This document shows positions 13,299-54,602 of a stretch of DNA of 64,000 nt, one piece after another (position 1 is the stretch's first letter; each line of letters starts with the position of its first letter). Below the pieces are notes generated by a model. The model was given only the letters and a program-made list of their open reading frames with translations. It made no database searches and was not told the DNA's origin. The stretch is from Psammoneis japonica (lineage: Eukaryota), in contig QPGO01000006.1 of NCBI GenBank assembly GCA_008632985.1, positions 434,001 through 498,000 on the forward strand, given 5' to 3'. The position numbers and the translations under genes are program-made.

Positions 13299-13532
13299 AG
13301 TCACGACTCAACGTCATTCTGGTCGCATCTCACGACTGCAACCCAGACTCAGATTTTCTCTTCGAAACAATTGGCTCATCACAAAATCGATTCAAACAGA
13401 AGCAACGACATTCGTCATAATTTCCAGACAACGACTTTCAACAAGCGTCTGTTTACCTCTGTCGCCACTCACATTGCCACCAACCTCCGAGGTCTCATCC
13501 ATCCTGCTCAGCTGCAGGACTGTATCTCGACT
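13299..13532 (+). repeat. 5' LTR (AGTC…GACT)
   Basis: Colinear with 20306-20539; 16 transitions and no indels by my manual alignment. Confidence 0.95.
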
Positions 13533-13694
13533 GGTCACAGAGACCAATTTACGCGTTGACGAGAGCTCCTGACCGAGTCATCGTCACGGACGCTTTCGGT
13601 TTTTGATTTTGAAGCAAACCCGGGAAACAGCTGAGTCTCTCTCGCTTCTCTCGTCTTCACTCTAACAAGAACCTCCCACACCACACTCTCTGTC

Positions 13695-16600
13695 ATGGCT
13701 GCCATCGATCCAGATGTTCTGGCGAAGGCGTTTGCCGATGCAATGGCCGCTCACGCCGCGGCGACCGCTCCTCCGGCTCCAACCAAGCCGTCACGTGGTG
13801 GAATTCACCCAACCCACGGGGTTTACATTGGTGGTTCCAAACTCAACAACAACTGCGAACAATCCAACGATAGAACCTGCCGACTCGCCTCTCAGCGCCG
13901 TCATCCCAAGGCTCTCGACTCGATGGAACGATCTCTCCGCGATCAACAAGCTTCCGCAATGACTTCCAAGTTCAACGGTCGACTTGAGATTTCGGACGGT
14001 CCCATCAACGAGCTTGACAAGGACCATTTCGTCAAGACTGTTCGAGATCTAGTAGAAGCCCACGGTCAGCAGACGTTCTACCATGTCAAGGACAGCGACG
14101 ACAAGGTTCAACATGTCTTCGACCATCTTCACGAGTTTGCTGTGACCGATCTCGTGAACGAGCACACGGTTGGGAAAGCAGCTGCCGATGATGCCAAGTA
14201 CGACGAGATCGAGCTCGACGATGTCGGGCTCTCTCAACTTCTCGTTCACTCAAGAATCACCAATGCCTTTCGCGAGAAAATCGAGACCAAGTTCAACCAT
14301 CTTTCGGACTGCCAAGACTGCCCTGGATCTGTTCCATTCATGATGGCTCTCGACACTTGCAATGCTGGCGCTCTAACGGATGTAGAGACGGCTAAGAAGC
14401 AGCTAGAAGACCTCAGTTTGGTCAACTGTCCCGGCGAGGATTGCACGGACTTTGCTGCCGAAGCTCTTCGCATCGTGAAAATTGTGCAGACCGACTGCGC
14501 GCTTCCGGCTAACACAAGCTCCAAGCTGCTCCACAAGATCTCCTCTGCGTCCTCTGAATGCTTCAATCGCCGAGTCTACAACAAGCTCGACGACGTCAAG
14601 GCTATGGAACGCAAGTGCCGTCTCAAGAATCCTGCTGACATCGTGTCCGACAGCGATTGCAAAACGCTCGGACCGGTCGGCATCATTGCGTGGATTCAAG
14701 AGCAACACAACGAACTCGTGAAGGACGGGGAATGGCCTGCATTGGTCGCCAAGCTACCCGAGAGTAATCTTTCGACTGCGGACAACCCTGGGAAGACGAA
14801 GCACTGTTGTGGTTGCGGTCTCGAGGGGTGCACCAAGAAGACGTGTCCAAAGTGCAACGCCAAACCGCCGCGCGACGATCCTCCTCCCAATCCGCCGCCT
14901 GCAGACGACCCTTCCAAGAAGAAGAGGCGACCCATCGCTGCCTGGCGTGCTAAATTTGACGGAGAAACGAAGAAGGATAAGAATGGCAAGGAATGGAAGT
15001 GGTGTGCCACGTGCAAGGCGAAGGGTGCCGACAAACCTGGAATCCACCAGAAGCACTCTACCGCGGAACACACCGACGACCGCAGGCAACCTCCCAAGGA
15101 GACCCCAGCCGGGAATTTGTCTTCCGTTGCTGACCCGGATAGTGGCGTGCCCATGGGTCCGCCCGCTCAGACCACCAAGGCACCAGAGGGAGACGAATCC
15201 GACCCCAACGAGTTAGTTTTCACGAGAATGTGGTGCGCGGCTACGGATCCCGTTGCCGACCCGGATTTCTGTTCCGCCCCTGTCACTGCTGCAATTGTTG
15301 TTACTCCGGCTTCTTCGGCCGAGAGGGAGAGCGATGCAGTCGTCAGCACTGAGGTGGTTTGCATCGAAACGAGCCCACCTGTACTCACCTCAGTCGTGGA
15401 TCCAGTCGTGTCTCCCATCGTGGTTGAGACTGTCACTCCCGAAGACGCCGATGACTTCTACGAATGCTCCGACGCTTTCTCTACCTTTGAAAACGAACCA
15501 CCGGCTATTGAGTTGTTTCCGGCCTCGAAGCTGTACTCTGTCAAGCATCCAGATGAGTTCTTTGACGCTCCCGCACATTTGACAGATGTGCTGTCAGACG
15601 ACACCAAGTTAGATCTCATCCTTGAACACGACATACACTTTGAAGACGCACACTGCGACTTACCTCCGTGTGTTACGTATCGTGGCTTCGATTTCTACGA
15701 TCCAGAGGTCCTGGATACGGATGATTGTCACGAGGACGTCGAAGACGAGCCCACTTCACGTCGCTCACTCTTGGGTCGAGTCAAGCCATTCACATTCTGG
15801 CTCGCCGCCATGTTTTGGGAAACGGTGCTACATCTTTGCTTTGCTCCGATCCCATGTGTCCCTCGAGCTCTACGCCGCCAGCGCAAACTCCCAACTTTGC
15901 ACGGGTTTCCAGCCTCCTGGATGGTCCCATCCGTTGCAGTGATGGCATGGTCAGCAGTTTACGCCGGTCAACAGCCCGAGCATCCATTCTCGAACGTACC
16001 AAGTCGTTTTTCGACCGCTGGCTCTCAAGTCTACCACATTGTGGAAGCGCTAGATGACCGGATAGTGTTAGATTCGGGGTCACTGTTCGAACATCACAGG
16101 ATCAAAGGCACGCAAGTACTCACCGAGTTTGTCGCGCGCCATCCGTCACACGCACTGAGCACTCGTCTCAAGGCCTGCTGGGAGAGCCTAGAAGTAGCTG
16201 AACGGTCTGATGCGATAGACGAATCAGCCTTCTTTGATGCCCATGAGGAACTGGAACCTCTCGACGACCAGAAGTATTTCTTTGACGCTCTTGAGGACTT
16301 CAGCCCGGATTTCTTCCAGTTTGACGAGCTCTGTCTGCCGCATCACATCGTGGACACTACCCATTTTCAAGATCCTGTGGAACCATTGGAGGAAGCAAGT
16401 GTTAGACCAGTCGTCTATGACACCTCCACCATCCAACCACTCACCGGACAATCACAAGCCGACCTCCTTGCATCCGATCCGCAGGCACTCATCGGTCTGT
16501 CGGACGAGGCTCTCACGGTCATCATGGATGCTGGTGCCACGTTAGCTGTTGCCCCCGACAAAGATGATTTTACGGGGCCTGTGACTGTTCCCAAGAAACC

Positions 16601-19600
16601 CTTACAGATCAATGGGATTGCCAACGGCCTTGCCATCCAGGGTGCCGGTCCGGTTGCGTGGGTGTTCACAACGCCGGGTGGGGCTACCATCCAACTGAGC
16701 ACCATGGCATGCTACGTCCCTGGAGCCCGTCAGCGCCTGCTGTCGCCTCAACGCCTCTTCAACGAAGAGAAGGGGGTGCGTGGGAAGTGTGAGGGCGATG
16801 AAACCACTTTCCGTTTACATGTTGACGGGACAGGCAAGTTGGTCGTGCCATGTCATCCATCAAGCCACTCACCTGTTGCGTCGATGACCAAGGGCGTATC
16901 TGCCGCTCCTCAAGTGAACCTTCAGATCCTTAACGAGGAGAATCAAAACCTCACGGCAGGCCAAAAGCTTCTTCTCGAAATGCACGCCCGTTTTGGCCAT
17001 TTGAACTTTGGTCGCGTCCAAGCACTTCTCCGTGCAGTTCCGTTCCTTTCGAACCGTTTCAAGTCCGCAGCGAAGTGTGACCACCCAAGATGCGAGGCAT
17101 GCGAACATGCTAAAGGTCACAGACGCTCTCTTGGATCTACTCACAAGTCGACAGTCCCTGAACGCGACGGGGCCCTTCGAGCTGACCATCTTCGACCGGG
17201 TCAGGCTGTCAGCGTTGATCATTTTGAGTCGCGCCTTCCAGGCCGCACCTTCGACTCTTGTGGCAAAGCCACGTCCAAGCAATTCAAGGGCGGTTGCATC
17301 TTTGTCGACCACGCCTCTGGCTATGTCCAGGTCGAGCACCAACCAGGTTTCTCCGCTGTTGAGACGATGCGCGCGAAGCAAGCGTTTGAGAAACATGCTT
17401 TGGACCACGGGGTCATCGTCCAAGAATTTCTTGCCGACAGTGGCGCTTTCAAGGCCAACGCTTTTGTACAACATGTGCGAGATCATGAACAACGTCTCCG
17501 TTTTTGTGGAACCAACGCCCATCATCAGAACGGCGTCGCAGAGCGGGGTGTCCGCAGCATCTCCAACATGGCGAGAGCGATGTTGCTTCATGCTTCAATG
17601 CACTGGAAGGGGGGAATTGACAGCTCCCTGTGGCCCATGGCAGTTTCTTGTGCCACGTGTGTCTACAATGTCACCCCAAATTCCAAAGGACATTGCCCTG
17701 CGGACATTTTCACCGGTTCGACAGTGCCAAGACATCGGTTGCGCGACATTCACACATGGGGATGTCCAGCGTACGTACTTGACCCGACCCTCGCTTCCGG
17801 GAAGAAGCTCCCGCGTTGGGAGCCTCGCACTCGTCGCGCTTTGTTCGTGGGACTCAGTGCCATCCATTCCAGTGAGGTTCCTTTGGTCCTCAATCTTCAA
17901 ACTGGAAGTGTTGCACCTCAGCATCATGTGGTCTTTGACGATCTCTTCACTGCCGCACCATCAATCGAGAGGGAGACGGATCCACCTGATCACTGGGAAC
18001 ACTCATGCCTCAACCAATCGACATGCATCCCTCTGGAGAAGGATCAGGCAGTTCATTTACACGATGAGTGGCTTGCCCCTCCAGAGCGTCAACGTAAAGA
18101 ACGAGAACTAGCCAGAGCAACACGTGTTCGCGGGCATTTTGAGCCTGCTCCATCGATTGCTGTGCCGGATTCACCCATTTCTTGCGACGACGTTGCCGAT
18201 CGAGTCGCACCTGCGACTCAGCAGCCAACGCCACCAGTCCCACCTGCGACTCAAACTCCTGCAGACTCTGGACTCTACGCCAATTCAGCCACCTGAACCT
18301 CAAGACAGTGACGGACTTCCGCCACCCGAAGCGCCGACGGAACCAACAGCTCCTCCCCCAGTCGAGACACCTCCCATGATGAATCCAGAGGGAGTGCCAG
18401 GGCTGCGACGGTCTTCACGGTCAACCAAGGGACAGTTCAACTCTGCCAAGTTTGTAGATGAGGTCCACTTCAGCTCCGTCGAGGAAACACCGCTGCCGAT
18501 CGGACACGAGGCTCAACTGGCGCATCTGGCGACTCTCGAGACGGATTTGGACAGTGGCACCAACAATGTCGGCGATCCACGAGCCTGCGCAGCTAGCAAG
18601 AAAACCAAGGACCCTGATGTGCCTTCGTTGCACAATGCTCTGAAAGGTCCGGACGCCGACGAATGGATTGGGGCGATGAAAATTGAAGTCAACGCACTCA
18701 CACATCGTCGAGCCTGGAAAGCAGTCGAGCGTCAGCCGCGTGTGAATGTACTTCCAGGCACATGGGCACTAAAGCTCAAGAGACTCCCAGATGGAACCCC
18801 TCTCAAGCACAAGGCCCGATGCTGCGTCCGCGGTGATTTGCAGAAAGAAGGAGTCGACTGCTTCGAAACCTGCACGCCGGTTGTGCAATGGTCCAGCATC
18901 CGACTCATGCTCACTGCGGCATTAAAGGAGGGATGGACTGCACGACAGGTGGACCACACCACAGCCTTTTGCCAAGCTGATGTCGCCGAGGAAGTTTGTG
19001 CAACACCGCCAAAGGGATTTGCGCCAAGGTCGGGACTCAATGTGGTTCTCAAACTTTTGAAAGGACCACACGGCCTAAAACAGTCTCCCAAGGGCTTCTG
19101 CGAGAAGTTACGAGCTGGTTTAACCGAGCGCGGATGGGTGCCTTCAACCATAGATCCCTGTTTGTATTTCAAAGAGGGCATGATGTGTGTGGTGCACGTC
19201 GACGACACCGTTTTTGCTGGAGCTTCAGCTGAAGCTCTAGAAGCCGAAATTCGCAAGTTAGGAGTCTCCGACGACGAACATCGCCACGCATTTGAACTTA
19301 GAGACGAAGGAGAAGTCGGCAACTTTCTCGGTGTCAAGATCGAAAAGCTCTCCGAGGGTCGATTTCTACTCACTCAACCCGGTCTAATTGACAAGGTCCT
19401 GCGTGCCGCACAGATGGAGGATTGCAATGGAGCATCCACTCCAGCTCTACCTGCGGCTGTTGGTGCCGACACGGACGGCCTGCCTTTTGATGAACCCTGC
19501 GATTGTCGCTCAGTTGTTGGAATGTTGATGCACTTGGCAGCGAACAGCCGGCCAGACATTGCACATGCCACACATCAAGTGGCTCGATTCTCGTTTGCGC

Positions 19601-20284
19601 CCCGAGCGTCCCACGCTGCTGCAGTGAAGCGGACACTCCGATGCCTCAAAGCAACTGCCACTGAAGGTCTCATTCTCAAGCCTGCGCAAGATCATCGAGT
19701 TGATTGTTGTGTCGATTCTGACTTCGCGGGGTCATTTGGTGTGGAAGATGGTCAAGACCCAGTTTCTGTCAAGTCCAGGACTGGATGCCTTGTCCACTGC
19801 GCCGGCTGCCCGCTCATCTGGGTGTCCAAGCTGCAGACTCTTGTGGCATTGTCGACCATGGAAGCGGAACATGTCGCACTTTCTCAAGCTGTGCGCGATC
19901 TCATCCCTGTTCGTGAAGTTCTCAAGGAGCTCAACCACCACGCATTCGGAAAGTCTGACCGCCAAAACCCTGTCACGACTCACTCCAAGGCTTTTGAGCT
20001 CGCAACCCAAGGCACCGATGACTCGCCTGTAGAGCAGAATGTCCTGCCTGCGTCCGTTGTGTACGAAGATAACTCCGCGTGCCTCAAGTTCGCACGCATG
20101 CCCAAGTTGTCTCCGCGAACCAAACACATCGGCATCCCGCACCACTGGTTTAGGACTAAAGTCAAAACAATTGGAGATCGACATCCAACCTGTCAGCACT
20201 CTAGAGCAACTGGCCGATCAGTTCACGAAGGGACTACGGACCGATGCGTTCCGCACGGCTAGAAAGGCTCTTGTGGGCTGGCAA
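13695..20284 (+). pseudogene. Copia gag-pol; catalytic and conserved residues mutated; frameshifts near 18270 and 20170
   Basis: Zn knuckle CCGCGLEGCTKKTC; protease MDAGAT; integrase VSVDH…ADSGAF…QNGVAER; RT ARCCVRG, HGLKQS, HVDD; RNase H DSDFAG, EAEH, EDN. Confidence 0.9.
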
Positions 20285-20305
20285 GCTCTCTCGGTTGAGA
20301 GGGAG

Positions 20306-20539
20306 AGTCACGACTCAACGTCATTCTGGTCGCATCTCACAACTGCAACCCAGACTCAGATTTTCTCTTCGAAATAATTAGCTCATCACAAAATCGATTC
20401 AAACAGAAGCAACGACATTCGTCATGATTTCCAGACAACGACTTTCAACAAGCGTCTGTTTGCCTCTGTCGCTGTTCACATTGCTGCCAACCTCCGAGGT
20501 CTCACCCATCCCACTCAGCTGTGGGACTGTGTCTCGACT
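20306..20539 (+). repeat. 3' LTR
   Basis: Direct repeat of 13299-13532, preceded by the polypurine tract. Confidence 0.95.
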
Positions 20540-26541: not shown

Positions 26542-27253
26542 AATATTGACCATTTTTCTTATGTGTTAAGTGATGTTCTATAACAACTCATATCCAAGTG
26601 TTTGTCTCTATTGTAGTTAGCGTAATTCTGTACTTAGGAGGTGCTCCAGCTTTTATTCATCATGAGTGCTTCAACGATAATCTGCTTCTTATCAAGTCCT
26701 CTCCCAGCGATCGAATCGTGAGAGAGAGAGAGACAGGGAGTAAACGCATACCAGTAGGATCATCTTCGTCTACGGTGCGCTCTCAAAACTACCACTTCTT
26801 TTCGACGTAAACAAAGGAAAGGTGCTACCGGTATGACCATCGCGTTCATGGGACACTATCTTGCCTTTTTTCTGACGAAAAGAAAAAGTGAGCCCCCGCC
26901 GGTGCGTGACAAGCGCGAGACACTTTAGTATCAATAATAATTGGTTGTAAAGGTATAAGTGACTCAATAAAGCATACCTTGTCAAGGTGAAAAGTCCGCC
27001 ATATTGATTTACGAGGAGTTCTCATATACATGTGTATCTCTAAGTACGCCAGGAACCGTTATATTAAATAATTAATGAATGGTGAATCTTAATAATAGTC
27101 CTGAAAACCTCGCCACTTTTTCGTCAATGTCGCAATCGCAAAAAGCTAAAAAATAGCGAGCCGCATTGATCGTGACAAACAATCACTTCAGCTATAACAA
27201 AGAAAGTAACAGAGCATTGAACTGAGCCAACTTAGTAACAACGGGAGACGAGG

Positions 27254-29835
27254 ATGCCACCGAGCCCCTTGGCTTCTTCTCTGGGTTTACACGAGCTTGA
27301 GTCGCAAGCAGAACGCAGGCAAAAGATGAAGCCGGGAGGATTTGCATCAGAAGACGTGGTGTCCGAAGATTCGGATTGGGTTGATTTTACTGAGACAAGA
27401 TCTATGTCTATTCGAGGTGAAAGCGCCTCATGGATGGGCAATCCGGTTGACAGCGACGCCTCGTGGTTCCCTTTGGCGCCACCAAACCGAACACCAACCC
27501 GAGAAGCACGCTCGGAAGTCGTTTCTAAGTTCCGTTTCTCAGAAGATGAGATGAGAATCGGCGCTCATCTAGAAGCAACTAGCAACGAGCGTCGTAAACA
27601 GCGCAGGCGCTCTTCCCGAGCCGTGAAAGAATCTGAAAACAAACACATAAAAGGCAGGCTTCGTGGAGGGCAGACACCACGAAAGTTGAAACCACCGACC
27701 GCTTCGAGGTCAAAAAGTACCAGTGATGTCCCTCAGAGTGTTGCAACAAATTCATCAACGTCCGATACTGGATCGTTACCCAGTAGGGGGCGTGCAACAA
27801 GGATGCGTTCCACTTCCCCATCTTCGCGAAGAGAAAAACGTTCGACGAACGCCGCCCAACCAACTTCGCGTCGTGGCAGGAGCCGTTCAATCACCCGGCG
27901 TGCGAGGAGTCCGTCAGTCACACGACTTTCCGGTGATAGGGGACGAAACCAAAAGTCCAATAATTCTGATGCCAGTAATTCTTCCACTCGAACTGGCTCG
28001 CGGTTGCGATCCCGGAGCCCTTCGCTCACCAGGTCTGAAAATAGGATCTCTACCCGTACCCCAGTAACCGGGCCACAAGCTACTTCAAGAAGAGAGCTTG
28101 AGAGTAGGCCTCCTCCGACTAGTGCGGGGCGCTCTGGAAGAAGTAGATCTGTCAGTCGAGTTCCTGGTCACAACTCGAGGAGTCGCTCGACCAGCCGGAC
28201 TCCTGTCATTAGGAGAAGTCGTTCGACCAGCCGGACTCCCATCTCTAAGCGATCTAGAAGTCGATCAACGACTAGATCGGCAACGCTCGATAGATACGGA
28301 GTAACTACACCTGTACCCCGGAGCTCCAATAGTATTGGTCCCGGACTTCCACCTCGTCATAAGCAATCTGCTGATGACGCCAGCGCCAGTGTACATACGC
28401 TGGACGAAAGGATCGGGCAAGATATCAGCTTTGGTACAGCCGTAAATACTACGCCGCAAAGGAAGCCATCTAGAGGATCGAGTGGCTCTTCAAAGAGAAA
28501 GGAAGGGGGTCTTATGGAGAGGCTTTTTGGTGACCGTGTGAGCGAATCTGCAAAGCGGTCATACCTTCCTTCGGGTGCTCCTCCATCGCCCGCGGCAAGC
28601 ACGTCAAGTAGCGTACTCTCATCCACGCAACAGCCGGATTGTATACACTCAAGAATGCTACTATCGGCGACCGTTTATCACAATTCTGCCACAAACCTTT
28701 GGATTACTACAATTAACACCAACCAAAAGGGTGTGGCGACCAACCAGGCCTCTGCTTCCAAGCATCTCAAGGCATTTTCTTTCTCTTCCGAACGAGAAGC
28801 TCGAGAGTCAGCGATTGCGAATGCACCTCCAAAGATGCTTCCATTCGGAGACTGCCCAAACTGTTTTGTATGCAATGGAAAGTTTGCAATCTTTCGGCGA
28901 GCAAGCCATTGTCGCAATTGCGGAGTTTGCGTTTGTAACAGCTGCTCTGTTACGTGGTCGGCAAAAATGTTACCCACAACGTACAATCTCAAGAGAGAAT
29001 CGAGTGTCAAGATTTGCAAGAGTTGTCACTTTCTGAGCATGGCGTTCAAGCGGGCGCTTCAGAATGGGGACTATGAAGGCAGTATTGCTCTCTATGGCAC
29101 CGGTAATGTGAACTTGAGGTGCCCATTCCCGAATCCACCGGAGGACAAGAAAGGGGAGACTATGTGAGTTATTTCTAAAGCTTTATCTTTTTGCTTTACC
29201 TCAACGCAATTCTCAACTATTATTTATTGACTCTCTTGTGAAGGTATCCGGTTCATTGCGCCGTGGAAGGCGGCAACTTGAGTCTTGTTCGATGGATCAT
29301 TGACGAGCACTACTGTCCCTTCAAAACGCTGCGTGCTCGCAAAAAGGGAAAGAAGAGTCGTGACGTACCTTTGACAACCTCGACCGGTCGCTCTGTGTTT
29401 AGCATTGCCATGTCGGGTCTCAAGATTGACATTATGCGCTATCTGGTTGTCGAAAAGGGCGTGTCTGTGTACGAAACCAAGGATCTCAAGGCATCCCTTC
29501 GGTCATTGGAAGCCACACTCTTGGCACTCCCCCAGCGCGATGACGAGAATGATCACAGGACAGCCGTGTTTCAGCTGCCTCATGATTTTGACGATGTCTA
29601 TTCACAAGATGATTGCAGCAGTTATGACCAATCCGTATCGTTTGACGACGAAAACGACGGCCGCAAGGAAGATGAAGCCTTGTCGGATGCTTGTATCCTT
29701 TGTTATGAAAACAACATTGATTGTGTGATTTTACCCTGTGGACATCAAATATGCTGCTTGCAATGCAGCGCAAACTTGAATACGTGCCCTGTCTGTAATG
29801 CGGAATGCCAATTCATTCGCATTTTCAAGCCTTGA
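27254..29835 (+). CDS. FYVE zinc-finger / C-terminal RING (C3HC4) protein; intron 29164-29243
   Basis: FYVE-like CFVC…RRASHCRNCGVCVCNSC…ICKSC. RING CILC…VILPCGHQICCLQC…CPVC. Splicing joins ETM-YPVHCAV in frame. Confidence 0.9.
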
Positions 29836-30444
29836 TTTTGAGAGAAGAGACTACCATCTGCGAGAGACGACTACATATTGATTCATAACCGGGAAAAGAA
29901 ACAGTTTATAACCAGCAAAAGATCATTCTCGAAATGCCGTTGTATTTAGTATTGTGCAAGTTGTCCATAGTGTGTTCACAACCGGGAGAAGAATGGCGCC
30001 AGTTACGATGATTCTTCAAATTCCGTACGCAGATTTCATCGAAATTCGCGCGCCGAACTCAATTCAGTTCACATCCGCGCCCGCGCTTATTTTCGCCTCT
30101 ATTAGAAGTAAATGAGCATGGTAAAAACAGCCCGGTAAAAGCAATCCTTGGGTAAAAGAGTGTCTGATGAGGAGTTGGACTTAGAAGTTTATGGTGCAAT
30201 TAGTCACCTGCTACATACGTACCTATTACATTGAACATCACACCATTACCGTACTACCGTGTGTACCGGTACCCCCCCGAAACACGGATGCAGCATCGGT
30301 ACGAAACGCGGGACTCAGCGGAGGCACGTCTCGCCTCATCAAACCAACAGGACATCAATCTCTCTGGCTTTTCACTCTCATCACAAAACGAAGATTGATG
30401 CATCTGTTGTCTTTAACATTGCAAAAGAGATTTCCCCAAATAAT

Positions 30445-31811
30445 ATGTCTGATTCATCACAAACGAATCCTCCTCCTCTTCAGACGCGAGAAGAAAGCGA
30501 TGAAGATTTGTTGGCCATGGCGGCGAATGCCAACGCGCTGGGGCGAACAGGACGGAACGAGGATGGGACACTATCTGATTTTTACACCTGGGCCGCCGCC
30601 CATCCTCAAAGGACTTGGAGGTTGTCGTTCATCAAGGACGGACCGCTTGGAAAAGTGCACAAGAAGAAACCACAACAAAGGAGGACAACCCAATAAGAGA
30701 ACGACTTTCCATTGTCTCTTGGAATTTACTGTCTGATACATGGTATCAAACGTCTCCAGAAGAGTATACTCACGTGACGGAGGACAATCATGGTGACTGG
30801 GAATTTCGATTGAAACGCATGGTAGATTGGTTCGGTACGTTGGATGCCCAGATATTGACCTTGCAAGAAGTCGACTTTGTCTTGTTTGAGTCGCACTTGC
30901 AACCAGCCCTGGCGACATTGGGCTATCAAGGCATGGTACAACGGCCCAAGAAAATGAGTCGGAAACAGCCCTGTGGTTGTGCGACATTTTGGAAATCGAG
31001 TTTGTTTCAATTGGAAGCAAGTGGTGTCTTTTCAAGGTCTCTGGCGACTGTATTGCGTCGAGGTGACGACGGCAAGATCAACAGCAATGTCGTGTGCGTC
31101 GTGAATGTTCACTTGGAAGCCTCTCAGAGTGAAGAGGGTGCCGATCGTCGTGCTCGTCAATTGCGTTCTGCCTTGGAATGGGCCGAACGTCGTCGTCGTC
31201 TTCATTCTTCGAACCAAGCAATGCCTCTCGTGGTGAGCGGGGATTGCAATACCGGTGCGGATGCCGCTCTCTTTACCGTGGTTCGCAACTACTCGTGGCA
31301 TGGCCACGACTTGGCCTCTGTCTATGAACACGCGAGTGCCAACGAGTCCATGCCAGCACGGCATGCGACATTTTGTGTTCCTGATCATCATTACCTGATT
31401 GATCAAATGTGGTATTCACATGAAACACTCCACTTGGAATGTTTGTTGGATCCATTGACGGAAGAGGAGAGAGAAACAGTTTTGAATGCGGGTTTGCCCC
31501 ACGAGATTTGTCCGTCCGATCATGTTCCGATTGGAGCTATATTTAGCGTCGTGGATCCGCCACCTACTGAAACTGCAACAACAGCCCAATCAAAAGAAGA
31601 AGAACAGCTTTCCGACGAACGCAAGGAGGAGTTGCGGGCCAGGTACCAAGAATTCATGGCTAATGCCCCCTCCAACAGTGGAAAACTGTCGGAAGAACAA
31701 AAGGCTGCATTGAAGGAACATGGTGCCACCGTCAAGGCGTGGGCCGAATCACTCTCCGACCCACTGGAACGGAAGTTTGCGGAAGCTCTGCGAAAGAAAA
31801 AAGTAAAGTGA
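30445..31811 (+). CDS. Endonuclease/exonuclease/phosphatase (CCR4/Angel-like EEP) protein; one frameshift near 30680
   Basis: EEP motifs SWNLL, LQEVD, VNVHL, GDCN, IDQMWY, PSDHVP. Confidence 0.85.
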
Positions 31812-32179
31812 CGACACAAGTAATGTTGTTAGCGACCTCCTTACTCATCACACAGAAAATGCCGAGTACCTAGTAGTGTCGGCGTCATGGTGCAGTAGAC
31901 CACGAGAGGAATTTTGAGTTTGGTGCAATAGGCTGCATCCTTCGAATACACTACACGTGCAAGAACGAGAAAAGCGGGAAAGACGAAATTACAAATCAAA
32001 TCTTTTTCTAAAATATTGCATACTCATCTACTCCGTATCTTGTATGTTGGACAGAGGATCTTCTGGAAGGATGGATCTGCCGCGTGCCAGTGAAAGACAA
32101 GAAGGGCTGGTGCATACACTGTCAAAAGATCAATTCGTTACGTTTCACACAACCGCACACTAACACAGTCTTTGGCACA

Positions 32180-33150
32180 TTGCCCACTCTATGTTGGCGA
32201 CCACCTGTCCAATGGTCCCTCGTGCTGATGCTTGGTCCAACGCTCTTCACGACTCGTCATCATTTGTTCTTCTGGCAAATGGGGATGTACGTCCATGCTC
32301 ACTGCACAACCACATTGCCAAATTTGAACGTTCTCCACTCGCAATTGGAAGAGCTGCATGTCATGTCATTCCACGATGCATCACAGCAACACCGGGAGCA
32401 AAGTTGACAAGATTCTTCTTGCCAGTGTCGGGGTCCACAAAGCAAAGGGAAGATCCCATCCATTCTTCGTCGCCATTCGGCAAGTTCAAGTTGATGTTGA
32501 CGAGTGTCAACAATGAGGAAGCATCCAAGTGTTGACAAATGGACTGTTCCTTTCCTGCCTGGCGCTGGATCGAAAATGCAAAGCCCCCGAGTCGTCCGCG
32601 CCTTGAACACATTTGGGAAAGAAGAGACTGCCCAAAGGACGCATGCAGGTGTCCATCAAGTTATGGCAAAAGGTTTGAAACTGAGGGATGGCCATGCACC
32701 CAACGGAACAAGGATCAATCATGAACCCATTGCGGTTCAAAACAATTCCACAACGTGGGTGAGTTGGGATTCTTGCCTTTGATGCCTCACCCAGGTGCAC
32801 TCTTGTGAGAGCAATTTTGAATGGATTGAAGAATTGGCACTGGCAGGCACCGGGCGCAACTTCTTTCCACGGGTCACAAACCAGCTTCTCCTTGCTGGGG
32901 TCCTTTCGTGCTTCTTGAACAGCCTTGTGCAAGTCAGCATCAATGACAGAGTCATCCAGCTTGGGAAGTGATGCACCCTGTGCCCATTCCTCCCATGCTT
33001 GGATGAGCAACTCATCATTTGTTTCCCAAAACTTGGCAACCGACCAACAGGTCATGATGAAGCATCTCCTCACGGGAGGGAAATTTCAACTGATGGGCCT
33101 TTTGAAGGTGGGGCGCTGTGGCAGCAGGAGCAGATTGGAGAGCCATGGTT
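32180..33150 (-). pseudogene. Degenerate 2OG-Fe(II) oxygenase-like gene
   Basis: Fragments DASSLLTLVNINLNL…GSSLCFVD…FAPGVAVMHRG…ALPIASGERSNLAMW lie in shifted frames and are Tyr-depleted. Confidence 0.6.
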
Positions 33151-33797
33151 GAAACTGAAGCAACTTTCTTGAGAAGCATCCTTTAGATGATGAGCCTTTT
33201 AGTTTTGCTCTTGATCAATTTTGTGTGATGAGAAGTTGTGGGGCTGAAAAGTTAAAATCCAACAAAGGAAGCATTCAATGAACCTTCTCCTCTTTCATTG
33301 ACAGTGAAAACTGTCTTGTTTTTTGTGTGGCTCTTTAAAACTCGAACGTCGCGATTTCGGCACCTTTCTGATTAGATTCTTTATGTGTCCTCAGAAACCC
33401 ATGAAAACTTGTGACTTCTCTCCCCAAACAAGTCGAGGAGAGTGTAATTGAGCAGTCGAAACACTTTGTCATGTGAAATGTCCAAGTTTCCATCGTCCTG
33501 GAGAGGGTTCAAGTTGGCGAGCCGACTTTGGCGATTTGTGTAGAAAACACACTAAGCTCCACGTGCGCAGAATCTGGCCGACTTTTTTCCCCTTACCACC
33601 TCAATGTCAAGACAGCATCGTTGATGGCCGACTGAGTGCATGATGGCATGCAAAATGCCCAAATGACATTAAAGTGCACAAAGGAAGAAGTTCCTTCTGC
33701 TTTCATCACAGCAAATGCTGCTCAGAGCTTCCAGTCTAAATGTTGAAAAATGTTTGTCAATGTTTGGAATTGGATCCTGTGTGTCCTTGGCACAGGT

Positions 33798-34048
33798 TCA
33801 TTGTGAGACCCCACAAATGCAAAGGGACCCTCCTGCAGAGCTCCACTCAAATTTTTGCATGTGGTTCTGAAACATGCAGCCTGCATGCACAAAACTGGTG
33901 CAATTTCTGTGACAAAAATCCAAAAAAATGCCCAGTTCGTGAGACAGCTCTGGTGCAAAACCTGCGCAAACAGCCCCCACACATTCACGCAGAACTCTGC
34001 ACATTTCCGGGTTGCGGGTCCCTCTGCATTTGTGGGGTCCCACAATGA
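33798..34048. mobile_element. MITE-like element with TIRs of about 33 bp
   Basis: tcattgtgagaccccacaaatgcaaagggaccc (33798-33830) versus gggtccctctgcatttgtggggtcccacaatga (34016-34048); 2 mismatches in reverse complement. Confidence 0.7.
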
Positions 34049-35727
34049 GGGTGGTGGCAGGTGACTTTCCAACAAAAATCTCTCTTCATCAGGCTGCGGT
34101 CACAGTCCACAGAAATTTGAATGTCATCTGTGAGGCTTTTCTTGACACAATTGCCACGCTGTTTGAAAGAGCCCTCATTGTGCTGAGCAAAACATTTTTC
34201 TAAATTTTTCTTGTTGCTGCCTCTTGCACCCATGTCTTTGAAAATGTGCAGTGTGCCAATGCTGCACCTTGCAATGCAGCACAAAGAATGAAAAGGCTTC
34301 TTGCAGTGCACTGCAAAACAGGGTCAGGACACGTGTCCTTGTCAGCAAAAAAGAAATCACTTGTGCCTTTTGTGTAAAATGACATGGTTGTTGGCCTTGG
34401 TTGTCATGCACGCCAGTTCCTGCAACCATGGAATGAGAACAAAAAGAGTGCATCATTGCTCTCAATGCTCAAGAGAAGGGGGCAAATCCTCTGCATGATG
34501 AGAGTGACAATGTGATGTGAAGTGGCGTGAGTTGTGCGTCATTTTCATTCACTCTGCAATGATTGTGTTTTTGTCATGATGTTGCAGGCAGGCTCAAAAG
34601 TCCACAACAGACAGAAAGTGCAAACACGTGGGCATGATGGAGTGTCAGTGTCCAGTGAAGTTCTCTTGAAGCAAGCACAAGCCTGCAAAACGACATTTGC
34701 GATTTTGGGCACACACACACACAATCCATTTGCCTTGGCACACAAGCTTTGAGACAATGCACACCTTCCAGGTGGCAACAGAAATCAACAAACCCAGTCA
34801 ACACACCACTTGACTTGAGCTGTCAGCTGCATCACCAATTGTGTGTGAAACATGATTTCCAAATTGACACATCCCAAACAAAGGTGGAACCGAGTGCTTC
34901 TAAAATTTGAGTCCAAGTGGCTCTTCCCCTCTGTGCACGTTTTTTCATGTTGGTCCACCATTTGAGACAAAATTGCAAGGTTTCACCTGACATGAACTGA
35001 TTGATTCATTGTGTCAAAGAGGGTTGAAGCGTGGGTCCTTCCAATGATGGTGACAATCATTTGATGTTGTGCACAGGTTGCATCTTGTGTGCCACATGGG
35101 AGCTGCACCTCAAGCATCTCCTTGTGGATGGGGGAGGAGAAATGACATGCTCAGCACAGACACATGGAGCTGAATGGCAGGCAAGTTGTGGGCCATCATG
35201 ACTCAGGATGCAATTCTGTCATTTCATTTGCCAACATTGCCGTGCACCCATTTGTTTGCTCTTTCCATTCTTGGCCCATGACGAAGTAAAGAGCTGAAAC
35301 AACCTGCCATGTTGTGTTGATGCTGGCATGTGCAATCAAGAATTGAATGGTGGAATGGTCTTGTAGAACACAGCATGAGTGCAGTGCTTTGTTGCAGCAC
35401 ACTAAAAGTTGTGGCCCCACTCAAAGGACAACAATTCCACATTTTGCTGCAAAATTTCAAGTTGGACTGGCAGGCAGTGTTCAATGCCAATGGCATGGAT
35501 TGTGTCGAGGTTCTCAGACAGGCAAAGATGAAACACCCCATTGCACCATTCCTGATTTTTTTGTCTCTGTCATTCCAGCATGACATTTGGAGATGTCATG
35601 CCAGAGACAACACAAACACACAACCTCCTCATCTGCACACATCTTCAACGGCACCAGCACAGGAGGGGCCACAACTTCAAACTCACATATCAGCCCCCCC
35701 CCCCCCCCCCCCAAAAAAAAAGCAGTG

Positions 35728-35915
35728 CAATTCATTCACCACATTTTTGGGCCTTGATTGAGTGGCTGCCATCTGCAAGATGTGACTGCGTGCTGATTCA
35801 CAACCAAGAAAAGAAACAACAATTCACAACCAACAAAAGATCATTGCAAAAAATGGTGCTCCACCCAGTGTGGCGCAAGTTGCTCACATGGTGCATTCAC
35901 AGCCATGAGAAGAAA
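35728..35915 (+). pseudogene. Mutated duplicate of the 3' end/3' flank of the FYVE-RING gene (29809-29990)
   Basis: Colinear similarity: caattcattc…gccttgatt…ccatctgc…gattca.aacc…gaaaagaaaca…aaaagatcatt…gcaagttg…gagaagaa. Confidence 0.8.
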
Positions 35916-36992
35916 AAGTTTGTGGCCAACAAAAGTCACAATGAATTGCTGTGGCATTTGGCGTGGTGCACAGCATGTTCACACAGTGTGACAAGAGCAC
36001 AAGAAGACTGAAGTGCCTGGCACAGCCATTGCCACTTGCAATGGCTGCTGCTTGCTTGCACCCGGCTCAAGCAGCTGGGTGCCTCAGAGGTGCCATCTCT
36101 GCCTGTTTTAGAGTTGCTGCAGGAAATTGGGGCTGCCAAGATCTCCATTTTTTGGCTCAGCTCGGTTTTTCATCTTTCCATGTTGTGCTTTTCACACCAA
36201 CAAGAAAGAGAGCTTGGGAGAGAGAGAGAGTGAGAACTGGTGGCTCCACCCGAGCTGCTCTTGTTCTTTGTTTGTCACATTTGATGGAAAATCGGCTGTG
36301 CCGATTTTGTCGTTCGTTCGAGAGAAAGAGAGAAAGTGTTCTTGGCATGGCTTTCCTTTGTCTGATGCTGCCGCTCTCACCTCGTTTCTCTGCCACATCG
36401 CCCAGTGCATTGCTCAATGCCAGTTGGGGTGCACTTTCTGTGATGGGCTGGCACCAGCTGAAGTGGACCTCAACCTCCCGTGCCACTCTTGCCATGCAGG
36501 AGTACACACAGTGTCGCTGTGACGCATCATCTCAGTGCTGACGTGGAGACACGCCTGTTCCATCGTCCGCCTGGGCGGGATGGGCCCGCCTCTTGTCCCT
36601 CGAATAAACTGATCATCTATGTATCATCTGAAGATTTCAAATGCAGTGTTTGAAGTGATTTGCGCGACCAACAATATCCTACATGAATGAACATGAAGAT
36701 GAATTTTGAGTCGGGGCAAAAAAGTTCCCCGAAAATTTGTACTCCAAACGCAATACTAAAATTCTTCTACATAAGACTCAATCATAAAATACATATGCTC
36801 CTGAAGAAACTAAATACAATTTGAAATAAATCAAATTTCTTCCGTTCCGATCTTCCGTTGTGACGTGGATTATAGCCCACAAATTTGTCAACAGACAGGC
36901 TGGGGTGCAAGTCACGGGTTGGAGCTGAGCGAAGGTCTATTCGATACAAAACACTGCACTCATTTCTTCTTTGTTGTGATCCATCAACCACC

Positions 36993-45800: not shown

Positions 45801-48800
45801 TGCCAGGGCATCTTGAATTGCTGCCATGGGCAAAGCACACTGACAACACAAGCAAGGATGACTTGCTTTGCAGTGATTTGAGTGCCATGTGCAGCACAGG
45901 AGCACGTGTGCTCAACAACATGGCACCAGCCAGCATGAGCTGTTGCAAGTGCCCAAACACTGCTGTGCCTGGCACTTTCCCCATTCTTGGTCATCATTTG
46001 CACACATGTGTGCAATGCTTGCATTGCCACAGAGCCCTGTGCATGCTTTGTGCCAGGTGGCAAAAAGGTGTGGGAAATGCCCTGCTCAGGTGGTGCTCAG
46101 GCCAATGACAAACAATGAGCTGATGCCCATTTCATGAGCTGCCACATTTGTTGTGATTGTGTTTGCAGTCAACAGCAAGGACAAAAATGGACAAATGAAC
46201 AGAGGTGTGCTCCTTGCTCCATTGACAACCATTTCACTTTTCAGGAAGAAATTGTGGTGGGTGACAAAGTGCACAGCATTGCAGCAGCAGCATCTTTCCA
46301 TTGATTTTTGCTGACAATGTTGACATGATGAGTTTGATCATTCTCAAAAGTTGGGAGATGTCTCCAGCCAGCTGCCGGCTGAAAAATCTTGACCAGAATG
46401 ATTTGCACTGAAAGAGTCTGTCAATCAGCCTGTTTTTTTTTTGCCAGATTTGGCAAGTGCCAGACACAGACCAGAGTGGCTGCTGGGTAAAAATGTGTTG
46501 GCAAATCCAATCAAATGCACTGATGGCAGATTTTTCCAGCCAGCAGCTGGCTGGAGAAGTCCCCTGCCAATGCCTCATTTGCAGCCAGCCCCAAGTTGTG
46601 GAGCTGTGGGAGCTTGGAACAGTCTTTGTCGTGAGGCTGTGCCAGCGGTTTTGCAAATTAACTTGTGCTGCTGCAATCATTTCCATGCAGAGGAGCAACA
46701 CCAAGCCATTCCCACAGCCGCCAAAGGTGACTTTGGCAGTTTTCAAGACAGCATTCATGACTGTTGCGAGTCAAAAGGGGGCATGTGTGGAGAAGGATCC
46801 ATTGCAGAATGCAAATGATCTGGGCAAATTGCCACAGCTTGTCAAGCACCAGCCAGTGGCAGCAGAAGGAAACAATGGCATTGAAGCCATCCGAGCACCA
46901 ATGTGTGGCACACTCAGGGGTGGATTTGACCAAGAGAAGGGGCTGCACACAAGCCTTTTGCACATGGGAAGCAACACTCCACAACAATCTTGCACTCTTC
47001 AACAATGGCACATGCACCTTTCTGCTCTTGTCAAACAAGAGACATGAGGAGACTCATTTGCCAAATTGCAGCAAAAGCTTTGAAAGGGATTTCAACTTCA
47101 AATGGTGTTGGTGAAGGGCCAACCTGCAGTTTGCCCCTGCATCAGGTGCAAGACCACAGCCACAAAGGGACAAATTAAGGTTTGAGCATGGCTCTGCCAT
47201 CCAATTTGGTGGTCTTCTTAGTGCCTCCAATGGAGCAAGGAAGTCTGTGCATCAGCAGGCAGAATTGTCCAGTCCGTCATCTGTGCAGCAGCAGAAAATG
47301 ATTGGTGGCAAAGAAGAAGAAGAAGCAGCAGCGTCCATTTGATTTTGAAATGCATGGTGCTTTTTGAACCACACACAGTCAATTGCCAGCCAAAACTTCC
47401 AGAGTTGCATGATGCCCTTTTCCACAATGAGTGCTGGGTGCTTCATGGCAAAGCTCAGCAAGTTGTTGTTGTTGGTTGTTGTTGTTGGTTGAGTGACATG
47501 CTCAAAATCCACCAGAGAGGAAAGTTCCCTCTCCCACTGTTGCAAACATCTGTTTTCTTGGAATCCACCCATCTTGTTTAAAAAAAAGCCATTTGATGCT
47601 GCTGCAATTCACAATGTCAGGCACATGTCCAGTCATGTGCTCCAAGTTCATGAAACAATGGAAGAGGAAAAGGAGAAGGAGGGGGGGGATGAGGTCTGAG
47701 CCCAATGTGCACCCACGTCATCCAGATGACTGATGCACCTCAGGTGTCAGGTGGTGGCCGGGGGGCCTCAACACAAAAACAACAATGGCAGCAGCAACAG
47801 CTGCTGCTTGACATTGTTGCCAAGGTCAAACCTTTTTCCCAAAAAAAAGGAATGCATGGCATTCTGTGTTTTTTTCTGATGAGTGCATCAACTGAAAGAG
47901 AGGTGAGACAAAATCCAAAAATGGATGAAAACTCTCTTCTGTTGACATTTCTGCTGGCAGTGCTTCAGTCTCACAACTTGCTGCTCATTTCAACTTTGCT
48001 TCACACTGGACAGATTGAACAGCATGGAACCTCTGTTTGTAGAGACCAACCACACTAACTCCTTCTGAAAGTGCAAAAACGAAACCCTTGTGAGTGCCGT
48101 TGTTTCATGTTGCTGCCACTGCCACACACCATGCCATCATCTGCAAGACTGGCATTGCTTGATGCAGTCCACATTTTGAGGCAGTGTTGTGGTCAGCAAA
48201 CAACTCTTTGAAGTGACCTTCAGGGGTTGTTGGAATTGGTCAGCATGGCGGTGCCCCACTCCAGCACTGTTGAAACATGCAGCAATCTACAATCCACCAT
48301 TTTTGGCTGGAAAAGTGCACGTGCAAGTGGCAGACAAGGTTGCCCTTGTCTCTAAAAATCATGCGCAACTGCTGAGGTTGCTGGCTGCAGCAACACCTCA
48401 GTGATTTTTTGCAACAATGTTCATGTGGCCTGGGATGCCAGTGCCTCCCCCCCCCCCCCCCCACCTCTGAATGTTGAGATGGCCAATGAGAGCCAAAGGG
48501 TTGCTCCCTTGTGAGGTGTCAACTGGCACTTCCAAGGATGGGAGTGCTTTCAACTGCTGCAGGAGACTCAAAATCTCTGTTTGATGGGGTTCACCTGCCC
48601 TCAAAGGTGGTTTGGATTGTTGAAATTTTGCAGCTGGGTGGCACAGGGAGCAGGTGGTGCTGGAGCATCCATGTGCTGCATGGGAGTTGGCTTGTTGCAG
48701 GAGTCGGCAGCAACATCAAGGTCATTGACACTCATCAGAGCACATGACACAGTGGTCAAGGTGCCGCCTTTCTCACGGCAGTTTTTCACCTTTTTGCAGG

Positions 48801-52011: not shown

Positions 52012-54093
52012 TCAGTTGCCCCTTGTGAACCAAACTCCTTGCAGGGATGCGTGCGTTGTACCAGCAGCATGTCGCCAGCTGATGATGCGGCTAGGTTCAA
52101 CATGCGACATGTTGAAAAGAGGCTCGATGCCATCGACGTCAATGCGGTGCAAGCCAAAGCCGTCACAGTTGTGCCGATGTCCACAGAGGTAGATTTGAAG
52201 AGGGACAACAAGAACCTTTGACCTCCGTAGGTGGCGAAAGGCAAGATGGTTCCTCTGTGCATCACTGTGCGAATGAGGAGCATCCACTTTGTGTCGCTGC
52301 ACCAAACTCGGAGCAGTCAGATCAGAAACGTTGAACAAACTCACGAGAAAACCAGTGGTTCGACCGGTGTCTTCGTTCGCGTCCTGTCCGATTCCGATGA
52401 GCATGTTGTCGTCGACGGGGTGCAGACAGTTGGAGAAGCCCATCATCTTCAACTCGCCCTTGACTTCAGGGTTGGCAGGATCTTTCAAATCTGCTGCACA
52501 CAGTGGATCAACCTGCCAAAAAGTCACGACAAATGCCTTGTCGTCCAAGAATCGGACGGCATGCATCCATTCTCCCTTGCCAAGACCCTCCACAAACCCA
52601 ATGCGTTTGCCAAAGTTTTTTGAATCTCCTGATGGCTTGTTGAAGTCAAGAATGGATGTCTGACTTGAAGAGTCACTGATGGTCATCCACCTGCAGGGGA
52701 GAGTTGTTTCGGCACAAGTGGCTGGTGGGAGACAGCTCCATTGAGCACGGTTTGTCGCAGCCACTCGTAGATGCCCGTCATGGAAATCCATGGAGAGCTG
52801 ATTCAGAACACATCTGGCAACCTCCGCACCGCCCACTCCCTTGGCAGCACTTCCATCATCTTGCAATTCAAATGCATGCAGGTGAGTGCGTTCTTTCCAG
52901 TTGCGCCAGTCATTGAACCACTGCCGCCAGCCTCGTCCAGCCACGACGAGAACATCTTGTGATGCGCACACATCCACCGAGCTCGTCGGGAGAAAAGCAT
53001 TCATTGACGAAAGAGTGATTCTGTTGTCATCAAAGTCTTCATCTATGTCGAAGCTTGTGACTTTGGTCAGAGTTGTCAGCATGTCAACGTTGTGGTAAAA
53101 GCCGGGTGCCTTGTCCTCGGCAGTGCTGCCAGTCATCAAGGACAACATCTTCGCAAAGTTGCGGCAGTTTCCGCCGAAACCCAGCTCTTCTTCAAGTCGT
53201 TTGATGACGGTGGGGATGAGGGCAGTCGCTTTTGCCTTTGCAGCTCTTCGGCACATCTCTGCGTCCATTCCTTGATGATCTTCTGCACATCTTTGAAGAT
53301 GCTGAGAGCAATGCTGAAACCAGTTGAAATTGGACATTGTGGCAATGTGTCCAACAGCGGAGATGGACCGGGAGGCAATGCATCGCCCTTGCAAGTCTTG
53401 GTGTGCAAGCAACTTCATCTCTGGAACACCGGTCTTGTCAACAATGCTTGGTTTCGTTTCAGACATGTCACAAACACGCAGCTGCAGCTTCTCTCGTCCT
53501 GCTGGAATCCTTGGGTTTGTGGAACCGCAGCGGCAACAGCTCTGGTGCCAACCGACAACCACTGCCAATCGATTTTCGTGAAGAAGTGGCGCCTTGATCC
53601 GAGGCTTGGAAGTGCGTGGCAGGTGGACGACCCTCAGCTCACGCCCAGCAGGGATGGTGGTCATGGCAGTGCGAGTCAGCACCTTTCCTGTTTTGGCATC
53701 CCATTGACATGGGATGTCACCATGCACTGCACAAACAACTTCACTGTTGGACTTGACAATGTCTCCCTCATCCACACCCGCTTCTTGGTTGTTCGTTTCA
53801 AAACTGTCCTCTGGTTCTGCATTGCTTTTTGCAGTGGATTCCACTGCGGCAGGGGCTGGACCTTGACTTCTGAGATGTGTTTCGGGACAGCAGTTGTCGT
53901 GCTTTCCATCAAAGATTGTGAAGTTCGCAAGCGATTTCAAAGCATCTGTGACATCCATTCTTAGAGCATTGCAGCTCTCGCATCCCTTGGCGTCTGATGC
54001 ACTGAACGGTCGACGCTCTACGATGAACGGATCGGATCCTGATTCATCAACGCCTCCTGATTCCCAACGTTTGCATCGAACTTGTTTTGGCAT
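52012..54093 (-). pseudogene. Beta-propeller domain protein (Beta_propel family-like), hypermutated but with an open frame
   Basis: Motifs TNNQEAGVDEGDIVKS, LNQLSMDFHDGHLRVA, VVTFWQVDPL, GELKMMGFSNCLHP and LIGIGQ. Only 2 Tyr in 693 aa. Confidence 0.75.
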
Positions 54094-54212
54094 CTGTTTT
54101 CACAGTTGCTTCTCTTTTCACCACTCGGTTTGTTCTTGGCACACCAGGTGAAGCACCTCTCAATCTTCTTTTCCCTTCCTGCTGCCAAGTTCCTCTTCGC
54201 CAAAGGTTGAAG

Positions 54213-54602
54213 GACGCGTTCCAGGTCTAGGTGGGACCTCGCACTACTGAACTGTGACATCGACAGTTTTTTGAATCACGTCGTATGTCGCGCACGTAGA
54301 TTTCTACGTGATTTTTTCGATATTTTGTGTCATTTTACGGTACACTTATTGAGCGATCCGTCCAACAACTTTTGACATTTTTTGTTACAGCGCGATTCTA
54401 TAATGTCTTAAGAATCGCGTAGGGCAGGCGCATTTGCAAAAACGTCGAGTGGCAAGAGGCATAATTGTACCACAAACTTGGCCGTTTATTTGATGTTGAA
54501 GATAAATATATCCATTAATTAAATTCTCGTACTACGGAGCTCGCACGTAGAATTCTACGGGCCCAATGTCACACGGAGTCCCACCTAGGGCTGGAACGCG
54601 TC
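54213..54602. repeat. 25-bp inverted repeat pair around an AT-rich core
   Basis: gacgcgttccaggtctaggtgggac (54213-54237) versus gtcccacctagggctggaacgcgtc (54578-54602); 23/25 match. Confidence 0.75.

Follow-up and report, generated by a model that had tools for sequence, protein, structure and literature searches.

The window analyzed here, a stretch of 64,000 nucleotides from the diatom Psammoneis japonica, carries the end of one gene twice, and every TA of the first version reads TG or CA in the second. This raises the questions of which version has changed, by what process, and why only one of the two was hit. An earlier note had proposed that the unmutated parent polarises the change as TA>TG/CA, and that only the copy inside a repeat domain is hit, unlike in RIP. 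The change proved to be real and correctly polarised; the process is in print once, and it has here a new target, namely host gene sequence of which a duplicate has come to lie in a presumably silenced place.

The parent gene, its copy and the surrounding block

The duplicated end belongs to a FYVE-ankyrin-RING gene, the last exon of which has 79 homologues, the named ones being from diatoms. The region comprises the following features.

27239..29167, + strand: upstream exon of the FYVE-ankyrin-RING gene, in a stop-to-stop frame of the ORF list (FYVE finger PF01363, E 9e-10)
29242..29835, + strand: last exon of the same gene (ankyrin and C3HC4 RING; PF13920, E 9e-11), ending ...QFIRIFKP-stop
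29809..29993, + strand: parent, consisting of a 27-bp coding end including the stop codon and 158 bp of 3' flank, with 10 TA and 7 CG
30579..31811, + strand: endonuclease/exonuclease/phosphatase (EEP-family) gene between parent and copy (PF03372), with a normal TA profile
32044..36604, no strand: TA- and CG-poor block containing the copy, with sharp edges (TA positions and profile)
33321..33604, no strand: dispersed repeat within the block, with tens of genomic matches at 80-93%
33797..34054, no strand: second dispersed repeat within the block, with short inverted ends
35728..35914, + strand: mutated copy of the gene end, with 0 TA; the old frame reads QFIHHIFGP-stop
36234..36336, no strand: 100 bp remaining from the terminus of a repeat family that has 45 other matches, almost all of them located in TA-poor DNA

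The copy is a direct repeat located 5.9 kb downstream of the parent, past the EEP-family gene. Comparison of the window against itself by blastn aligned 29809-29993 to 35728-35914 with 69.6% identity across 194 columns (E 1e-12), and a transition-tolerant alignment of the pair scored 155, compared to 25±3 and a maximum of 37 for 200 dinucleotide shuffles. The reading of this segment as a mutated duplicate of a host gene end is thus borne out by formal alignment, and all five of the parent/copy blocks quoted in the earlier note are found in the sequence. The second-best match of the copy within the 264 kb around the window scored 37. Only the first 27 bp of the pair are coding, and all of the TA sites fall within the 3' flank. 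The surrounding block holds 27 TA in 4.56 kb, with nine in its final 2.87 kb, and its GC content of 0.45-0.49 resembles that of the flanks. At the TA density of neighbouring intergenic DNA, the chance of finding 0 TA in 187 bp is 3e-5. Independently assembled contigs (X1), which may derive from the same sample, match positions 35727-36282 with 0 differences. Against the unique parts of the block, the X1 contigs show two single-letter differences, at 32664 and 35031, both of CG versus TG/CA, hinting at either a still ongoing loss of CG or an allelic difference.

All 10 TA of the parent are changed in the copy (five to TG and five to CA), compared to 15/52 of the other A/T-only steps (AA, AT and TT; Fisher p=3e-5), and the parent keeps them; within the focal pair the hit is one-sided, just as had been claimed. 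The seven CG of the parent are all lost as well, four to CA, two to TG and one to AA, so that six of seven became TG/CA. The background in the pair amounts to transitions at 13/89 other A/T sites and 5/55 other G/C sites, and transversions at 8/178 sites. Two clusters of non-TA transitions, at 35747-35752 and ~35862-35868 (CAA to TGG and TTTA to CCCA), are unexplained by a pure TA rule and may represent minor AA targets following long exposure.

Genome searches with the parent, the copy and the block returned no further copy of the fragment, in a DNA search insensitive at 70% identity that missed even the parent-copy link itself; the description of the fragment as captured, in the sense of capture by a transposon, therefore found no support. 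A purine/pyrimidine-seeded scan of 264 kb for pairs of normal and depleted sequences yielded 12 short matches including the focal pair, and no other host fragment in the block.

Direction of the change

The pair alone is compatible with either direction. If the parent had instead acquired its TA from a TA-free ancestral state, through C>T changes of the ordinary or RIP type, the G of TG or the C of CA would have changed at 14/44 sites, compared to 7/30 for other G/C (p=0.6), so the rates of the pair permit this reading. However, the homologues agree with the parent. Among the 79 homologues, the 65 with a parsable RING tail were used and the 14 without one were dropped; where the copy has H, these C-termini have R/K/Q at 41/23/1, and where it has G, they have R/K at 35/30. 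Because the 65 tails match the parent, they establish it as ancestral, but only across the coding 27 bp. A gene flank devoid of TA would, moreover, be improbable at the local TA density (3e-5 for 187 bp), which also speaks for the parent. Moreover, the reverse reading would additionally require six gains of CG in the parent, and the polarised controls described below run the opposite way, which together make it extremely unlikely. Among the genomes searched, there was no DNA outgroup over the focal TA sites, and the five RING/ankyrin paralogue loci within the genome gave no DNA match to either parent or copy (scores 21-30).

The proposed direction is thus upheld through the homologues and larger controls, and not through the pair by which it had been argued. 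Taken alone, the 185-bp pair is a modest example, and most of the weight rests on the controls. A beta-propeller gene family and a series of mobile-element copies, both of which run TA>TG/CA, establish this direction for the process itself.

A beta-propeller gene copy with erased TA

The first control lies in the same window, where a whole gene copy and an element inserted in it were identified.

52015..54099, - strand: beta-propeller (PF09826) gene copy, TA erased; the erased zone continues to ~54940
54213..54599, no strand: MITE-like element inserted in the beta-propeller copy, with 27 TA versus 29 and 30 in two sisters

Four TA-normal paralogues elsewhere in the genome, 81-90% alike in DNA over >2 kb, served as outgroups. 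The window copy has lost 42 of the 50 TA common to all four (CA 21, TG 21), in addition to 10/56 CG, with other A/T transitions at 10/498. Correspondingly, 26 shared Tyr residues have become 13 Cys and 11 His, with 2 Tyr remaining. The four paralogues themselves show TG/CA at only 3/56, 2/52, 6/65 and 1/52 shared TA. The C16 paralogue has the same neighbouring TA-poor repeat DNA, but its erased zone ends at the gene, whereas the zone in the window crosses the gene to ~54940. The frame of the window copy is still open across 695 codons. As the homologues outside this genome are largely bacterial, the family may have been acquired horizontally and then expanded here.

The MITE-like element, TA-rich and 390 bp long, has inverted ends and is apparently flanked by a target duplication of 4 bp. 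Its three copies, at 54213-54599, at 65964-66352 and ~59.5 kb upstream of the window, are 97-98% alike, and each lies at, or close to, the boundary of a TA-poor block. As the inserted copy keeps 27 TA, compared to 29 and 30 in the sisters, most of the erasure had probably taken place before this copy inserted.

A young mobile element hit copy by copy

The second control is a 4.8-kb mobile element, found ~37 kb upstream of the window (L008:2870-7637). At least 13 copies are 99-100% alike and are flanked by short target duplications of variable length; the element has no long terminal repeats and no Pfam family above the cut-off. Several of its insertion flanks are strikingly CTAG-rich. From 52 matches, 20 stretches chosen across identity bands were fetched; the 14 at >=96.7% were used, and six older copies (79-96%) were excluded from the spectrum on account of subfamily divergence. 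Copies were classed as hit or unhit by outcome. Of ~190 TA, 5-125 are hit in six of these 14 copies (96.7-99.8% alike), compared to 0-1 in the other eight.

The spectrum of the six hit copies is almost confined to TA. Sorted by the 5' base, A>G occurred at 363/2224 sites after T, 7/4366 after A, 3/4134 after C and 0/4015 after G, the last three summing to 10/12515. CG transitions numbered 30/2691, and those at other G/C 3/10452. The per-site ratio of TA to non-CG G/C transitions is therefore ~570 (363/2224 versus 3/10452), a relative value derived from copies that were selected as hit.

The DNA on either side is TA-normal for three of the hit copies, and one unhit copy adjoins a TA-poor flank. 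Because near-identical copies differ in their hits and hit copies occur in TA-normal flanks, the rule is neither repetition nor adjacency to an erased block, and the switch is copy-specific. The earlier statement that hits fall inside the repeat domain is accordingly too narrow. Inheritance of hits from one element copy to another was rejected: at shared hit sites the direction agrees in only ~55-85%, as for mostly independent events at favoured sites. An old fragment of the element lies in a TA-poor block of the window at 48284-48610, where, compared to the intact element, TA has fallen from 10 to 2 and CG from 18 to 2.

Sequence signature and tempo

TG and CA products are interleaved in the six hit element copies and in the beta-propeller copy, with non-significant runs tests throughout, and they are evenly balanced in the focal pair (5/5) and at the shared TA of the beta-propeller copy (21/21). 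Since the products interleave without runs, the changes arise at the DNA level, in both strands and through many events; processive bursts along a single strand were rejected. The only hint of an artefact, or of RNA-level editing fixed by reverse transcription, is a mild A>G excess on the ORF strand of the element (96 versus 62 at symmetric sites, p=0.008, with sites reused across copies). Such an origin is scarcely credible, as TG and CA are mixed inside single copies, the beta-propeller copy has no strand excess (33:32), and the X1 contigs reproduce the focal copy.

The base 3' of TA also matters. The hit fraction is.24 for C,.21 for T,.10 for A and.08 for G (site-level p=7e-11), so TAY is hit 2-3 times as frequently as TAA or TAG. 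Among the ten minor hits outside TA, nine have a 3' pyrimidine. Of the contexts in which TA is left in depleted DNA, TTAA is overrepresented 4.7x and CTAA 3.5x. The TAY rule is non-significant in the focal pair (4/6) and in the beta-propeller copy (20/30, p=0.10). Altogether, both strands are hit, TAY is preferred, the switch is copy-specific, and the targets include host-derived sequence.

Which base is attacked can be read in two ways, because A>G on one strand and T>C on the other mirror each other in sequence data. Read from the opposite strand, A>G in TAY is T>C in RTA, so all the counts fit the latter equally. The same targeting might hence operate through thymine chemistry, with the T in RTA oxidised or hypermodified (5hmU, 5fU) and then read or repaired as C, a minority reading that we consider unlikely. 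The genome has no match to Tet_JBP (PF12851), a null result made uninformative by control genomes that likewise have none. Adenine deamination, which we favor as the chemistry of the fast step, stands at roughly an even chance.

CG is lost at 0.04-0.11 of the rate of TA, and the two losses rise together across a series of increasing age, from lightly hit elements, through the beta-propeller copy (TA 84%, CG 18%), to the focal fragment (both 100%, with 4.5% transversions). This parallel climb, together with the TAA>TGG and TTTA>CCCA clusters in the focal copy, would suit an error-prone repair in which a polymerase of the eta type, placing G opposite T, acts at T:G mismatches left by 5mC deamination and so gives A>G. 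However, the signature of polymerase eta is WA, from which the observed 7/4366 for AA versus 363/2224 for TA is far removed, and TA hits exceed the supposed CG triggers by ~12:1. Such a repair origin is very improbable.

Comparison with RIP

RIP is a C>T change in a CpA context. It makes TA and has an AT-rich outcome, whereas here TA is removed and GC stays at 0.45-0.49. The two processes are alike in the dense, dinucleotide-specific transitions in repeat-rich blocks, the sharp contrast to genes and the spill-over into unique neighbours, as described for Neurospora and other ascomycetes. RIP is also premeiotic and depends on RID/DNMT4 or DIM-2; the present genome has 27 matches to PF00145. The available account of RIP gives a minimum duplicate of ~400 bp and a leak into neighbouring unique DNA (bioRxiv 10.1101/2022.11.30.518637), whereas the focal duplicate measures 185 bp. 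Since RIP needs ~400 bp and leaks, a fragment of 185 bp among repeats could look one-sided under RIP too. Consequently, the claim of a process unlike RIP stands for the chemistry and, owing to the larger controls, probably for the targeting, and the one-copy argument that had been drawn from the pair falls away. RIP mutates both copies, whereas here the parent, four paralogues and eight element copies are spared, to which selection or timing could contribute. Better evidence than the pair against a both-copies rule comes from the paralogues and element copies that were spared, yet selection, outcrossing or timing could hide a trigger by pairing.

Such a trigger would combine a homology-based, RIP-like recognition with an inverted chemistry: repeats pair, the reaction leaks into the unique fragment, and the partners survive by selection, outcrossing or youth. 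Nearly all erased blocks contain repeats, and the tandem duplication at 59264-64534 is TA-poor in both copies. In the published accounts, RIP leaks into flanks and its DIM-2 route hits single-copy DNA between repeats (bioRxiv 10.1101/2022.11.30.518637; PMC12543289), and diatoms possess DNMT4, a relative of RID (PMC9998398). Against these points, eight of the 14 copies of the 4.8-kb element, >99.5% alike, carry 0-1 hits, whereas equally young copies carry up to 125; four beta-propeller paralogues, 81-90% alike over >2 kb, are spared; and the hypermutable NCLDV region reported in Bigelowiella natans is single-copy (bioRxiv 10.64898/2026.01.13.699255). We therefore judge a pairing trigger to be improbable.

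Comparison with TpA hypermutation in Bigelowiella natans and with base deamination

In a literature search that covered few subscription papers, the only printed case of TpA hypermutation found was that in the rhizarian B. natans, and none was described in diatoms. According to the preprint (Mettrop et al., bioRxiv 10.64898/2026.01.13.699255), hypermutation there affects integrated NCLDV and virophage DNA, at a rate hundreds to a thousand times the background. In both organisms, as far as that preprint describes its case, TpA changes to TpG/CpA on both strands, the change is regionally confined and on or off by case, and a second copy is not required. In addition, ADAT2 is proposed there as a candidate, and an ADAT2-like candidate gene is present here.

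The differences lie in the target, the extent and the accompanying changes. Compared to the viral inserts of B. natans, the targets in this diatom are transposons and duplicates of host genes, and the erasure is near completion. A viral or foreign origin does not describe them: one is the end of a RING gene, and another is a paralogue of an intact family, albeit one with largely bacterial homologues outside. The loss of CG accompanies that of TA here, and the main text of the preprint contains neither 'CpG' nor 'diatom'; a TAY preference, which is measurable here, likewise sets this case apart from the preprint. The rates in B. natans were measured de novo, whereas ours are inferred from copies, and the on/off switching described there across lines has here only an analogue, with six of 14 element copies hit and eight unhit.

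Methylation of CG by DNMT5 is reported for diatom transposons (PMC9998398), and with subsequent 5mC deamination it could account for the CG>TG/CA part and provide a plausible silencing mark. The expected excess is present (6/7 focal CG; 30/2691 versus 3/10452 at other G/C). However, 5mC deamination cannot yield TA>TG/CA, and the CG clock runs at only 0.04-0.11 of the TA clock.

A closer chemical parallel is found in TadA/ADAT enzymes, which perform A>G editing with a strong 5' U/T preference; in the report concerned, bacterial TadA reads UACG and TadA-8e prefers UA (PMC12296453). Unlike here, their natural substrate is tRNA, and the full UACG motif is absent from our spectrum, as a G two bases after the A is not favored (TACG 0.20 < TACC 0.31); their action on chromosomal DNA is putative. 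Candidate genes are present in the genome, comprising an ADAT2-like gene (C26) with HAE, PCxxC and GCxN motifs, a TadA-like gene of the organelle type and two distinct A_deamin (PF02137) loci, L144 (C40) and L145 (C79), one of which may be ADAT1. To our knowledge, ADAT2 is a universal tRNA enzyme, so the presence of the ADAT2-like gene says little on its involvement.

A model of one-sided erasure

We propose as the probable explanation that the duplicate was rewritten by a fast process at TA and a slow loss of CG in a silenced locus, with TadA/ADAT-type deamination as the likeliest fast step, and with active chromatin sparing the parent. The 185-bp piece, comprising the gene end and its 3' flank, was duplicated 5.9 kb downstream, as the alignment itself demonstrates. 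The most likely routes would be templated filler at a break or a local duplication that decayed, either of which seems more economical than capture by a transposon. The loss of CG and the neighbouring repeats suggest that the copy landed in a locus that became silenced. The fast process seen in the counts above converts TA to TG/CA on either strand, favoring TAY, copy by copy and whatever the origin of the DNA. The slow process, seen as CG>TG/CA and ~10-25 times slower, would reflect methylation and 5mC deamination. In the fast step, a TadA/ADAT-type enzyme that is drawn to silenced chromatin would deaminate the A of TAY, giving inosine. The parent would have stayed intact through its active chromatin, and not for want of a partner.

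The B. natans case is framed, in the preprint, as a defence against foreign, viral DNA (bioRxiv 10.64898/2026.01.13.699255). Here the hits fall on the end of a host gene and on an entire host-type gene copy, and their partners are spared, which suggests that the mutator also acts on host gene copies, each individually, and shifts the question from foreignness to the silencing of the locus. It also offers a rule for the fate of diatom gene duplicates. The TAY motif, together with the on/off series of near-identical copies, provides a handle for finding the enzyme; if it is indeed a natural DNA adenine deaminase, it would be a new source of base-editing chemistry. More broadly, it is conceivable, though we would not quite expect it, that diatoms possess a DNA adenosine deaminase guided by chromatin, which recognises TAY and is switched on at individual silenced loci, regardless of homology or viral origin. 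It would destroy transposons and pseudogenise redundant copies of host genes (Tyr to Cys/His, with TAA/TAG stops erased). This would make it a second genome-defence mutator, with a chemistry opposite to that of RIP; a rhizarian would share it, and it may be widespread across SAR.

Other repeated sequences in and around the window

The tandem duplication at 59264-65956, which spans the window end and the next stretch, has copies 95-96% alike, both TA-poor with CG nearly normal, and contains a 927-codon ORF with no Pfam match. Two arrays of diverged tandem repeats (77-83% alike) at 1-2443 of the window have normal TA, and are thus repeated DNA yet unhit. A Copia-type element at 13299-20539 (RVT_2, gag pre-integrase) has terminal repeats 93% alike, and its TA are partly erased.
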